64,000 bases of DNA from Cladosporium halotolerans (lineage: Eukaryota). The notes below the pieces were generated by a model that was given only the letters and a program-made list of their open reading frames with translations, was not told where the DNA came from and made no database searches. The stretch lies in the NCBI RefSeq assembly GCF_011745625.1, contig NW_027191490.1, forward strand, positions 62,001-126,000. Reading direction: 5' to 3'. The position numbers were made by a program, and so were the translations under genes. Positions 7,746 to 10,629 of this stretch are shown here, in pieces (position 1 is the first letter of the stretch; the number at the start of each line of letters is the position of its first letter).

Positions 7746-8462
7746 TCACAGACGGCGACCACGGCGACCACCCTTTCTGCGGGTGGAGTCGGAGGGAGTC
7801 GGGGTGACGTCCTCAATACGGCCGATCTTCATGCCGGAACGGGCGAGGGCACGGAGGGCGGACTGGGCACCAGGACCGGGGGTCTTGGTGGAGTTGCCTG
7901 AAAAGAGTCTTAGTATTCTGGAATTCCCTCGACACCATACGCTTTGGGTATACATACCACCAGTAGCCCTGATCTTGATGTGGAGGGCAGTGATGCCGAG
8001 CTCCTTGCAGCGGACGGCGACGTCCTGGGCAGCCAGCATAGCGGCGTAGGGCGAGGACTCGTCACGGTCGGCCTTGACCTTCATGCCACCGGTGACACGG
8101 GAGATGGTCTCACGGCCACTGGAATCACCCAGGTTAGCCTTTGTACCATTTCTTTATTTTTGCACCAAATCGCCAAATGTTCTCGAGTCGCGAAATTCGG
8201 CGGTTGGTGGAGGTTCAGACGTACGAAAGATCGGTGACGTGGACGAAGGTGTCGTTGAAGGAGGCGAAGATGCGGGCAACGCCAAAGACGAGCTCGCCTG
8301 AGAATCGTTCCGTCAGCAATTGTTTCTCGCGATTTTCGCGCCGACCGACGGTGGTCGTTTGTCGCGAATTGGGCGGTTGCAGCGATTCTTACCCTCGCGG
8401 ACCTGGGGGCCCAGGGAGATGTTCTCCTGAGGGGCGCGGGTGACCTGCTTCTTGGGGGCCAT
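7746..8462 (-). CDS. RPS14: 40S ribosomal protein S14 (uS11)
   Basis: MAPKKQ..., [55 protein letters not shown]; introns 8392-8298, 8224-8119, 7957-7898. Confidence 0.97.
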
Positions 8463-8812
8463 GGCGACGGTATTTGACGACTGGGGTGGTGGTATTCGGA
8501 GTCGCTGGAGTCGGCCGTGAAAAGAAGAAGTCTCGCTCGCTGGCGGTTAGCGGGCCGGTGGGGAGGAATTGGAGAGTGTGCGGTGCAGCCTCAGGCTAAA
8601 ATTTCGCCAAGGCCCGAAGCTCGCCGCGGGCAGTCCGAGCACCGCCGCTTTTCATTCGCGACTTCATTCAAAGCCGCGCAGCTTCCCGCCATTTCTTTAC
8701 CACCTGTTCATCTCACGTTTGCACTCGCACACTGCGCAGCGCATCCCAGCGACCGTCGGCCTTTGTTTGCGTAAGGCACGTATGGTGAGCGCGAGGCTCG
8801 CCAACCGCCAAA

Positions 8813-10629
8813 ATGGGCGACGCAGTCGTGGGAATCATCGGAATGGGTGATATGGGCAAGATGTACGCCCGCAGGATCGCCGACGCTGGATGGAGGTAGG
8901 TGCAAAGATCTCGCACGAGTCTGTTTGCACTGTCTCGAAGCACAAATGGTACGTTCGCCCTTTTCCCCGACACGCACCCTCTCCTTGCATCCTGATGACT
9001 TGAGTGCATTTGGCTCGAGTATGGCCGCCTGGCACCAGCCATGCCATCTCGGCGTGGTTGACTGGGCGGCTGTCAATGATGTAAAATCTCAGCTACCTTA
9101 TAATTTTTGTCTGAAAAGCAAAAGAAAAACACATCCGATCTTCACTACCAAACGAAGCGAAGAGTCTGTACTGACTGTGCATCAGATTTTCTATTATTTC
9201 TTAAACTCACTCTGTTCAGGGTACACGCCTGTGACATTCCGGAGAAGTATGATGCTCTTGTCCAAGAGTTCTCTGATCGCGTACGCAGTGCACCAATCCA
9301 ATGTTACATAGTTGTCATATATAGAAAGCATGCTGAGGCTTCAGCAGAAAAACATTACCATATTGCAAAACGGCCATCTTGTCTCCCGCAGCAGTGACTG
9401 GATCATGTACAGCGTCGAGGCCAAGAGCATTGACTCAGTCGTAGCGCGCTTTGGTCCCTCGACTAAGCAAGGCGCTATTGTCGGTGGCCAAACGTCCACC
9501 AAGGCTCCGGAGATCGCCGCTTTCGACAAACACCTTCCCAAGGACGTCGATGTTGTCTCGTGTCATTCACTCCATGGCCCTGGTGTTGATCCAAAGGGTC
9601 AGCCTCTTGTGATCATCAAGCACCGCGCCTCGCAAAAGTCTGTCGACCTGGTGGAGCAGATCCTCAGCTGCTTCCAATCCAAATATGTCCACCTTTCAGC
9701 CGAGATGCATGACCGCATTACCGCGGACACCCAAGCGGTCACACACGCTGCCTTTCTCTCCATGGGCTCCGCTTGGGAGGCCAACAAGCAGTTCCCCTGG
9801 GAAGTGCCGCGCTATATTGGTGGCATCGAGAACGTGAAAATGAACATTACTCTGCGCATCTATAGCAACAAGTGGCACGTGTACGCAGGTCTCGCGATCC
9901 TCAACCCAAGTGCCAAGCGCCAGATTGGGCAGTACGCTGAGAGTGTCACTGAGCTATTCAAGCTTATGCTGGGTGGGCATAGGAAGGAGCTCACGGAACG
10001 TATTCACGCCGCTAGAGCTGCAGTGTTCGGAACGCGCAAGGTAGAGGATGAATTGCTGCTGCACGACGAGCTTCTCGATCAATTCAGTCTGGGTGAGAAG
10101 CCGGCGCAGAAAGTCCGCAACAACCATCTCAGTCTTCTTGCCATGGTGGATTGCTGGTGGAAGTTGGGCATTGTGCCATATGATCATATGATCTGCTCCA
10201 CGCCAGTAAGTTCGCCATGTGGAGCTATAAATACGACAGTTATCTTGCTGACAAGGTCATAGCTCTTTCGTCTTTGGCTAGGCATTACCGAGTATCTTTA
10301 CCGCAACGAAGACCTGCTCAATGAAAGCATTGACAATGCCATCACCGACAGTACTTTCGTGGCGGATGATCTGGAGTTCACTTTCGCTGCCCGGGTATGC
10401 GCGCTTCAACAATTGCCAAAGCTTAACATCATCGCTAACCTTGCACGTGCAGGACTGGTCTAACCGCGTCTCTTTGGGTAACCTAGACGGGTATCGAGAG
10501 AAGTTCGAGAAGATCCAGCAGTACTTCAGCCCTCGCTTCGCAGAGGCCACCAAGGTCGGTAACGAGATGATTAAGACGATCGAGGAGAACCTCAGAGCGC
10601 GGAAGGCGGAGCAGGAGGCAAAGGAATGA
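8813..10629 (+). CDS. TYR1: Prephenate dehydrogenase (NADP+)
   Basis: GIIGMGDMG Rossmann motif in exon 1; GGQTSTK, CHSLHGP, HDRITADTQAVTH, YSNKWHVYAGLA; introns at 8896-9219, ~9281-9347, ~10206-10263, ~10395-10452. Confidence 0.93.
8988..9118 (+). ncRNA. snR13: Box C/D snoRNA, snR13-like (guide for LSU rRNA Am2280/Am2281 equivalent), intronic in TYR1
   Basis: C box TGATGA 8993-8998; guide GCATTTGGCT antisense to LSU AGCCAAATGC; internal GC-rich hairpin ~9024-9070; C'-like ATGATG ~9076; second element GCTACCTTA antisense to LSU TAAGGTAGC; D box CTGA 9111-9114; TGAGTGCATTTGGCTCGAGT matches yeast snR13 as recalled. Confidence 0.88.

Follow-up and report, generated by a model that had tools for sequence, protein, structure and literature searches.

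The window analysed here is a stretch of 64,000 nucleotides of Cladosporium halotolerans (contig NW_027191490.1, positions 62,001 to 126,000), and it holds on its forward strand a prephenate dehydrogenase gene, TYR1, with its coding start at position 8813 and a box C/D small nucleolar RNA (snoRNA) in its first intron. A preliminary description of this DNA, made from the letters alone, had proposed that the snoRNA sits in a second intron, complete with its own signals, inside TYR1 intron 1. Indeed, we find in RNA both the junction of this inner intron, on molecules that still carry the flanking exons, and the outer junction that restores the reading frame. The features of the locus are given below in positions of the window; the runs X1, X6 and X9 are introduced with the RNA evidence.

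8813..8895, + strand: TYR1 exon 1, coding part, with a phase-2 end (…GCT GGA TGG AG); by translation
8896..9219, + strand: outer intron, 324 nt; joint skipping 324 nt in X6 and X9 contigs, frame restored
8896..8901, + strand: outer donor GTAGGT; by sequence
8896..8948, + strand: 5′ remainder of the outer intron, 53 nt; X9 record 22 and X6 record 6 pass from exon 1 through the remainder to the inner junction
8949..9185, + strand: inner intron with the snoRNA, 237 nt; GT..AG joint skipping 237 nt in X1, X6 and X9
8949..8954, + strand: inner donor GTACGT, 44 nt 5′ of the C box
8985..9121 (ends approximate), + strand: predicted box C/D snoRNA, homologue of snR13 and Neurospora crassa CD1; by guide and boxes
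8985-8988 and 9118-9121, + strand: snoRNA terminal stem of 4 bp, TTGC with GCAA; by sequence
8993-8998, + strand: C box TGATGA, preceded by C, not a purine
9001-9020, + strand: D′-side guide, 20/20 nt identical to the RF01223 consensus
9015-9018, + strand: degenerate D′ box TCGA; by sequence
9077-9082, + strand: C′ box TGATGT; by sequence
9092-9098, + strand: conserved element GCTACCT; by sequence
9111-9114, + strand: D box CTGA; by sequence
9169..9175, + strand: inner branch TACTGAC, branch A at 9174, 60 nt 3′ of the D box
9184..9185, + strand: inner acceptor AG, 11 nt past the branch A
9186..9219, + strand: 34-nt 3′ remainder of the outer intron; includes both the outer acceptor and the branch candidate
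9205..9210, + strand: candidate outer branch ACTCAC, A at 9209
9217..9219, + strand: outer acceptor CAG; by sequence
9220..9280, + strand: TYR1 exon 2; by translation, with the intron 2 joint 9280^9348 in X6 and X9

A full set of donor, branch and acceptor thus lies wholly within another intron, and excision of the inner intron from the outer one would leave a remainder of 87 nt. The preliminary description had placed both donors, the inner branch, both acceptors and ACTCAC correctly, and its lengths for the inner intron and the remainder, as well as its distance from the D box to the inner branch A, agree with our measurements. The outer branch of the window's clade is the non-consensus CTCAC.

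The outer pair of sites had been said to be needed for the reading frame, and translation of the splice forms bears this out: only the joint of 8895 to 9220 (8895^9220) keeps the Tyr1 frame (…DAGWR/VHACD…), while the forms 8895^9186, 8948^9220 and the inner-only form 8948^9186 meet stop codons. Whenever the 5′ remainder stays in the RNA, translation stops at an in-frame TAG at 8897-8899, and in 65/65 of the nested orthologues described below a retained remainder likewise introduces an in-frame stop. These stops were rejected as evidence of selection, since most follow automatically from a phase-2 GTAA, GTAG or GTGA donor. We also considered an 8-nt micro-exon at 8941-8948 after a 45-nt first intron, which together with 9186-9219 would make 42 in-frame nucleotides without a stop. 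It was rejected because no such joint is listed, the 45-nt piece has no branch and the orthologous proteins have no insertion there; the stop-free 42 nt are probably a coincidence.

For evidence of splicing, the Logan contigs of four runs from four studies (X1, X6, X7 and X9) were aligned to positions 8650-9750. The runs are not recorded as RNA; we took X1, X6 and X9 as RNA on the basis of a start at 8735-8791 together with GT..AG intron joints. X7 is DNA-like, with even cover of the upstream and promoter region and of the introns, and has no joint. Because the DNA-like X7 shows none, we regard the joints as RNA events. Parts of the locus without cover in a single run were not used as evidence. 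The joints seen in the contigs, from which rare forms may be absent, are listed here with contig depths, which are rough and therefore show presence, not ratios.

8948^9186 (inner, skips 237 nt): X1, depth 497; X6, 8.3; X9, 6.0
8895^9220 (outer, skips 324 nt): X1, not listed; X6, 6.9; X9, 6.8
9280^9348 (intron 2, skips 67 nt): X1, not listed; X6, listed; X9, listed

The inner joint, which follows the GT..AG rule with an ambiguity of 1 nt, is present in 3/4 runs, and its use had been predicted; the three runs come from three studies. The outer joint, which had been named as a check, exists in RNA in X6 and X9. The predicted intermediate, spliced at the inner intron and unspliced at the outer one, is found as well: record 22 of X9 is a contig of 144 nt that runs from 8867 to 8947 and then from 9185 to 9247, and both this contig and record 6 of X6 join exon 1, the 53-nt 5′ remainder, the inner junction, the 34-nt 3′ remainder and exon 2. 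The inner junction therefore lies on RNA that holds both outer remainders and the flanking exons, and the inner intron is spliced alone from exon-bearing RNA. The preliminary description had named three findings that would speak against nesting, namely an outer junction alone, the lack of an intermediate and the lack of conservation of the inner signals, and all three are contradicted, the last by the orthologues described below. Its further suggestion that cross-pairing of donors and acceptors might uncouple the snoRNA from Tyr1 has no counterpart among these joints, the mixed joints 8895^9186 and 8948^9220 being listed in the contigs of none of the four runs; any such uncoupling would come about through retention of the 87-nt remainder and not through mixed pairing.

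Run X1 differs from the other two in that its contigs show the inner intron both spliced out (depth 497) and retained (314), but the outer intron and intron 2 only as unspliced sequence. A 1340-nt contig of this run, at depth 223, extends unspliced through the 3′ remainder, exon 2 and intron 2 (9281-9347) into exon 3. The X1 sample may be nascent, nuclear or stress RNA. In the DNA-like run X7 the locus is present in two versions that share 90-99% identity with the window and have no splice joint; the DNA probably comes from two related strains or species. The inner donor, branch and acceptor are free of the 40 differences listed (of 47); the differences 9203 A>G, 9204 A>T and 9215 T>C adjoin the outer branch.

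The snoRNA has the architecture of the C/D class, with the C box near its 5′ end, the D box near its 3′ end and a short terminal stem, and its boxes are kept in the orthologues. A permissive Rfam search of 8850-9260 (411 nt) matched snR13 (RF01223) at 18.0 bits with an E value of 1.4, short of the RF01223 gathering score of 47, and there was no Rfam match at gathering level anywhere in the whole window. The low score is explained by the internal part of the snoRNA, which differs from the yeast sequences. We assign the snoRNA as a homologue of snR13 and of N. crassa CD1 by its guide and by its similarity to the Neurospora sequence, not by the Rfam threshold. CD1 is described as the snR13 homologue, 125 nt long and intron-encoded, with 26S-Am2242 as target, and its D′ guide GCAUUUGGCU is shown paired with 26S-Am2242 in supplements 1 and 4 (Liu et al. 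2009, PMC2780460). The start of CD1 has nearly the same sequence as the snoRNA of the window and the same D′-side guide GCAUUUGGCU, which appears in the window as GCATTTGGCT. The window's snoRNA thus resembles snR13 and CD1 in its guide, in size (∼125 nt in N. crassa) and in being intron-encoded, as it is in N. crassa and Trichophyton rubrum, and differs from the yeast members in its internal part. In the parts available, the papers on CD1 of N. crassa and T. rubrum do not name the host gene and do not describe nested signals; in PMC2780460, ‘nested’ has 0 hits in the text and ‘prephenate’ has 0 hits in the text and supplements.

A scan of metagenome contigs by exact match to the 20-nt snoRNA guide gave at least 111 loci, on which all orthologue counts rest. 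A tblastn comparison with the window's Tyr1 found TYR1 exons on one or both sides of the guide in 103/111 loci among the matches listed, and the Tyr1 N-terminus MGDAVVGIIGMGDMGKMYARR… is kept in the same number (103/111, again among the matches listed). With a spliced-alignment script, clean models of intron 1 were obtained for 86 loci and for the window, which yielded 66 unique sequences, and the modelled intron is always in phase 2 and always follows GW(R/K). The 25 excluded loci comprise some that are cut by a contig end, 8 that are full-length and mis-modelled, and 6 that are unrelated to TYR1 (L023, L041, L045, L051, L092 and L098). By eye the 8 mis-modelled loci have the same layout; of the six unrelated ones, L051, L092 and L098 are without a C box.

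Conservation of the inner signals, which the preliminary description had put forward as a check, is found in 65/66 unique orthologous introns. With a strict donor consensus defined as GTRAGY or GTAYGT, 65/66 unique introns among the matches listed have a strict donor 30-60 nt 5′ of the C box; dinucleotide shuffles give a mean of 1.4/66 and a maximum of 5 in 200, and the antisense strand gives 7/66. The rule for the branch was CTRAY 45-75 nt past the D box, followed 6-30 nt later by an AG other than that of the outer acceptor. Such a branch and non-terminal AG are present in 62/66 introns by the rule applied to the shuffles, for which the mean is 7.5/66 and the maximum 14, and in 65/66 when the branch is searched inside the 45-75 window. 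The same 65 introns carry both the donor and the branch/AG sets. When the parts outside the snoRNA are clustered at 70% identity, the full inner signal set is found in 33/34 clusters (among the matches listed).

The spacing of these signals varies little. In the orthologues 33-58 nt separate the inner donor from the C box, 51-68 nt the D box from the inner branch and 6-18 nt the inner branch from the AG; the inner introns measure 223-259 nt and the residual outer introns 77-175 nt. The motif positions used for the search are conserved by construction in the conservation table. Beyond them, we noted G at donor position -1 (22/33), G before CTRAC (28/33) and C before the AG (22/33), while the flanking sequence has 0-0.3 bits, that is, it is unconserved. 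In N. crassa the distance from snoRNA to 5′ splice site is usually 41-60 nt (Liu et al. 2009, PMC2780460), a spacing that fits the inner donor and not the outer one. Judged from these alignments, the inner signals are under purifying selection at a spacing appropriate to a snoRNA, and many distantly related fungi share the nested layout.

The outer intron was compared with 32 ordinary TYR1 introns taken from the same loci by a rough script and not checked by hand. Strict donors are found in 19/66 outer introns and in 7/32 of the ordinary introns, and on this comparison we rejected the idea that the outer donors are unusually weak. A CTRAY branch is present in the 3′ remainder of 56/65 nested orthologues and in 13/32 ordinary TYR1 introns, which have a median length of 57 nt. 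By its signals the outer intron resembles the ordinary short introns of fungi, and it is the inner intron that stands out by the perfection of its signals. Loose outer signals of the ordinary type fit a short intron that is recognisable only after removal of the inner one.

The 5′ remainder of the window can be folded into a hairpin at 8899-8930 (GGTGCAAA… / …TTTGCAC; about -14 kcal/mol), which takes in positions +4 to +11 of the outer donor. Close relatives of the window share the hairpin, L110 with a single compensatory change; other lineages lack it. A structure of the 5′ remainder that hides the outer donor was considered and rejected: the hairpin of the clade reaches -11 to -14 kcal/mol, but its z scores are only -0.5 to -1.3, without significance relative to shuffled sequences, and the feature is not general: averaged over 65 orthologues, z is -0.11 (5′ remainder) and +0.31 (residual intron).

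The sole TYR1 orthologue with a simple snoRNA intron, among the matches listed, is L037, in which a 243-nt intron (∼1445-1687) occupies the same exon junction. Its donor directly adjoins the exon and precedes the C box by 48 nt, and the branch CCTAAC lies ∼57 nt past the D box, so that its geometry is that of the inner intron without the outer layer. In the Tyr1 tree, which has a midpoint root only, L037 falls in a polytomy, and its simple intron may be either the ancestral state or the result of a secondary loss of both remainders. Three of the loci unrelated to TYR1 carry snR13 in other settings. L023 and L041 (∼1380-1900) have the same snR13 guide and boxes in an intron of another host gene, which reads as an E2 ubiquitin-conjugating enzyme (…GKICLSLLGTW…), with a GTACGT donor ∼45 nt before the C box and no obvious nesting. 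The presence of snR13 in an E2-type host in these loci suggests that the snoRNA intron changed its host gene between lineages. L045 (∼1480-1640) is A+T-rich and yeast-like; its snR13 is close to the Rfam consensus and appears to be a free-standing gene, with neither flanking splice signals nor TYR1.

Upstream of TYR1, a gene on the minus strand reads as starting at ∼8400-8462 (CAT 8460-8462). If this gene is real, a promoter region of ∼350 nt would be common to it and TYR1.

TYR1 intron 1 holds one genuine intron inside another, and we consider it probable that the inner intron is removed first and the 87-nt remainder spliced afterwards. The spliceosome would take out the 237-nt inner intron first because the strong inner donor and branch lie nearest to each other, and transcription completes them ahead of the outer branch. 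The inner lariat would then be debranched and trimmed to a small nucleolar ribonucleoprotein, as expected from the established pathway of intronic snoRNAs (a debranching and trimming route cited in PMC5033589). The remainder, which has the size of an ordinary fungal intron, would be removed second, presumably from the intermediate, to give in-frame TYR1 mRNA. Molecules halted after the first step would carry a stop codon at the outer donor, and with this stop in the inner-only RNA, snoRNA output would not need a productive TYR1 mRNA. The inner signals are near-perfect and spaced as is usual for snoRNA-bearing introns. That no mixed joint is listed also fits an inner-first order, because splicing of the outer intron in one step must pass over a downstream donor and an upstream branch that are both stronger than its own. 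Of the two-step nested splicing proposed in the preliminary description, the excision of the inner intron and the intermediate are therefore borne out by the contigs, and we infer the order of the steps and the passage from precursor to mRNA.

Several observations weigh against this reading. The RNA evidence consists of assembled contigs, in which depths are unreliable and rare junctions may be missed, and the joints come from the window's locus only, the support from orthologues being that of sequence signals. The outer signals are intact, with CTRAY in 56/65 and a strict donor in 19/66, and removal of the 324 nt in one step is possible. The depths of the intermediate and of the finished junction are similar (8.3 versus 6.9 in X6, 6.0 versus 6.8 in X9), and the contigs of X1 have no finished junction; the similar depths together with X1 would also fit a stable dead-end isoform. 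Finally, L037 has a simple intron only, and since it manages with its 243 nt, the outer layer would be dispensable.

A dead-end isoform is what we would expect if the transcript had two exclusive fates, an explanation that we regard as rather unlikely. Splicing at the inner pair would then give the snoRNA and an RNA with a premature stop that is degraded and never re-spliced, and splicing at the outer pair would give the mRNA in one step, with a long outer lariat that can yield the snoRNA too. The similar depths in X6 and X9, the occurrence of the intermediate alone in X1, the completeness of the outer signals and the in-frame stop upon retention of the remainder in 65/65 orthologues all agree with this explanation, and uncoupling of snoRNA and host gene by alternative splicing and nonsense-mediated decay is a known idea for human hosts (PMC11028025). 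However, what remains after inner splicing is a complete intron of ordinary size (77-175 nt in the orthologues), and nothing in the sequence blocks its splicing. Moreover, pairing of the outer donor with the outer branch would need to span at least 300 nt, past a donor and a branch that are both stronger, and yet give none of the mixed junctions, which are not listed. The idea that the inner GT…AG is a chance signal, a cryptic site of low use without selection, has in its favour that hexamer-level motifs arise at random (as in the 7/66 antisense strict donors in the same window) but is extremely improbable, as 65/66 orthologues and 33/34 clusters keep the signals at fixed distances from the snoRNA boxes between unconserved flanks, and the inner junction, seen in three studies, matches or exceeds the main junction in depth.

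Why the layout exists is a question separate from its mechanism. We see the case for a frozen accident as about evenly balanced: a snoRNA intron would have been inserted into an existing short TYR1 intron, without a regulatory role, and would have persisted in place because the loss of either layer needs two precise deletions. In line with this, the inner geometry is that of a free-standing snoRNA intron and the outer one that of an ordinary short intron, snR13 is found elsewhere in other lineages (the E2 intron of L023 and L041, the independent gene of L045), and snoRNA-associated introns have moved between sites (Luo et al. 2013, PMC3596301). On the other side, no TYR1 orthologue with an empty short intron is present among the loci in hand, the position of L037 in a polytomy does not help to place the simple intron, and persistence in 33/34 clusters also fits a selected function. 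We put forward only tentatively, and as the less likely outcome, that the outer mini-intron is a conserved and possibly regulated gate: the strong inner signals would secure steady production of snR13 from each TYR1 transcript, and the outer intron, of ordinary to weak signals, would settle whether the transcript ends as Tyr1 mRNA or as a discarded RNA with a stop. On this view the layout arose by transposition of a complete snoRNA intron into an intron already present in an early filamentous ascomycete.

The arrangement was compared with known forms of complex introns. Stwintrons, in which an inner intron interrupts the donor, branch or acceptor of an outer one (Flipphi, Fekete and co-workers), are similar in that a U2-type intron lies within a U2-type intron of a protein-coding gene of Pezizomycotina and is spliced consecutively. 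They differ in that the TYR1 outer signals are uninterrupted: 47 nt lie between the outer donor hexamer and the inner intron, and 19 nt between the end of the inner intron and the candidate outer branch. TYR1 intron 1 is accordingly not a stwintron, as the outer donor at 8896-8901, ACTCAC and the CAG at 9217-9219 are all intact. None of the stwintron papers found treats a snoRNA host, and PMC8469720 names a snoRNA once, in passing. Recursive splicing through a zero-length exon was also rejected, since the junction AAATG/ATTTT has no GT after the joint and regenerates no site.

Nested, recursive and stepwise splicing is known from non-coding polycistronic snoRNA hosts of Candida, Debaryomyces and Yarrowia (PMC5033589, PMC3596301). 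These yeast polycistrons (Donovan et al. 2016; Luo et al. 2013) share with TYR1 an ordered removal of introns and release of a snoRNA by the sites used first. They carry several snoRNAs, one per intron, in introns that overlap or abut (negative, zero and one-base exons), and one splice creates or destroys the next site. TYR1 was not placed with them, having one snoRNA, a protein-coding host and two introns whose sites share no nucleotide; unlike in the non-coding hosts, a reading frame hangs on the outer pair. Closer is the nested intron of snR51 in Euascomycetes (Luo et al. 2013, PMC3596301), a conserved intron in a snoRNA-bearing intron for which stepwise splicing has been proposed. Its ‘intron B’ lies inside the snoRNA itself, between guide and D box, whereas the TYR1 snoRNA is intact within the inner intron.

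Nested or multi-step splicing also occurs in vertebrates, in dystrophin intron 7 and in the ‘intrasplicing’ of protein 4.1, and recursive splicing occurs in Drosophila. These cases involve very long introns, and recursive splicing regenerates a 5′ splice site at the junction. The vertebrate cases are similar to TYR1 in that an internal segment leaves first and the remainder is spliced through the original outer sites; by comparison, the TYR1 unit has only 324 nt and its junction regenerates no site. Splicing of this kind is mentioned in PMC4712674. Our search of the openly accessible literature found no description of a snoRNA in an intron of TYR1 or prephenate dehydrogenase, and none of a snoRNA-bearing intron nested intact in another intron; in ‘The fungal snoRNAome’ (PMC5824354), snR13, TYR1, nested, host gene and prephenate gave 0 hits. 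The TYR1 layout would therefore be a form of nested or complex fungal intron for which no prior description was found.

This layout offers a small, natural and deeply conserved case, 324 nt long, of two complete nested introns that share no signal, and splicing order, competition between sites and the fate of the intermediate are open to simple mutations in a housekeeping gene. For annotation, it means that a gene model built on the good signals closest to the snoRNA would disrupt the reading frame of TYR1. As snR13 resides in different hosts in different lineages, the locus also lends itself to testing whether introns can be gained when an entire snoRNA intron is inserted, and if the part of our proposal concerning transposition is true, it would be among the clearest natural traces of intron gain by whole-intron insertion. 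The layout ties the supply of a snoRNA for ribosome biogenesis to a gene of amino-acid biosynthesis, with outputs that may differ, and thus bears on the question of why the levels of snoRNAs and of their host genes are often uncorrelated.

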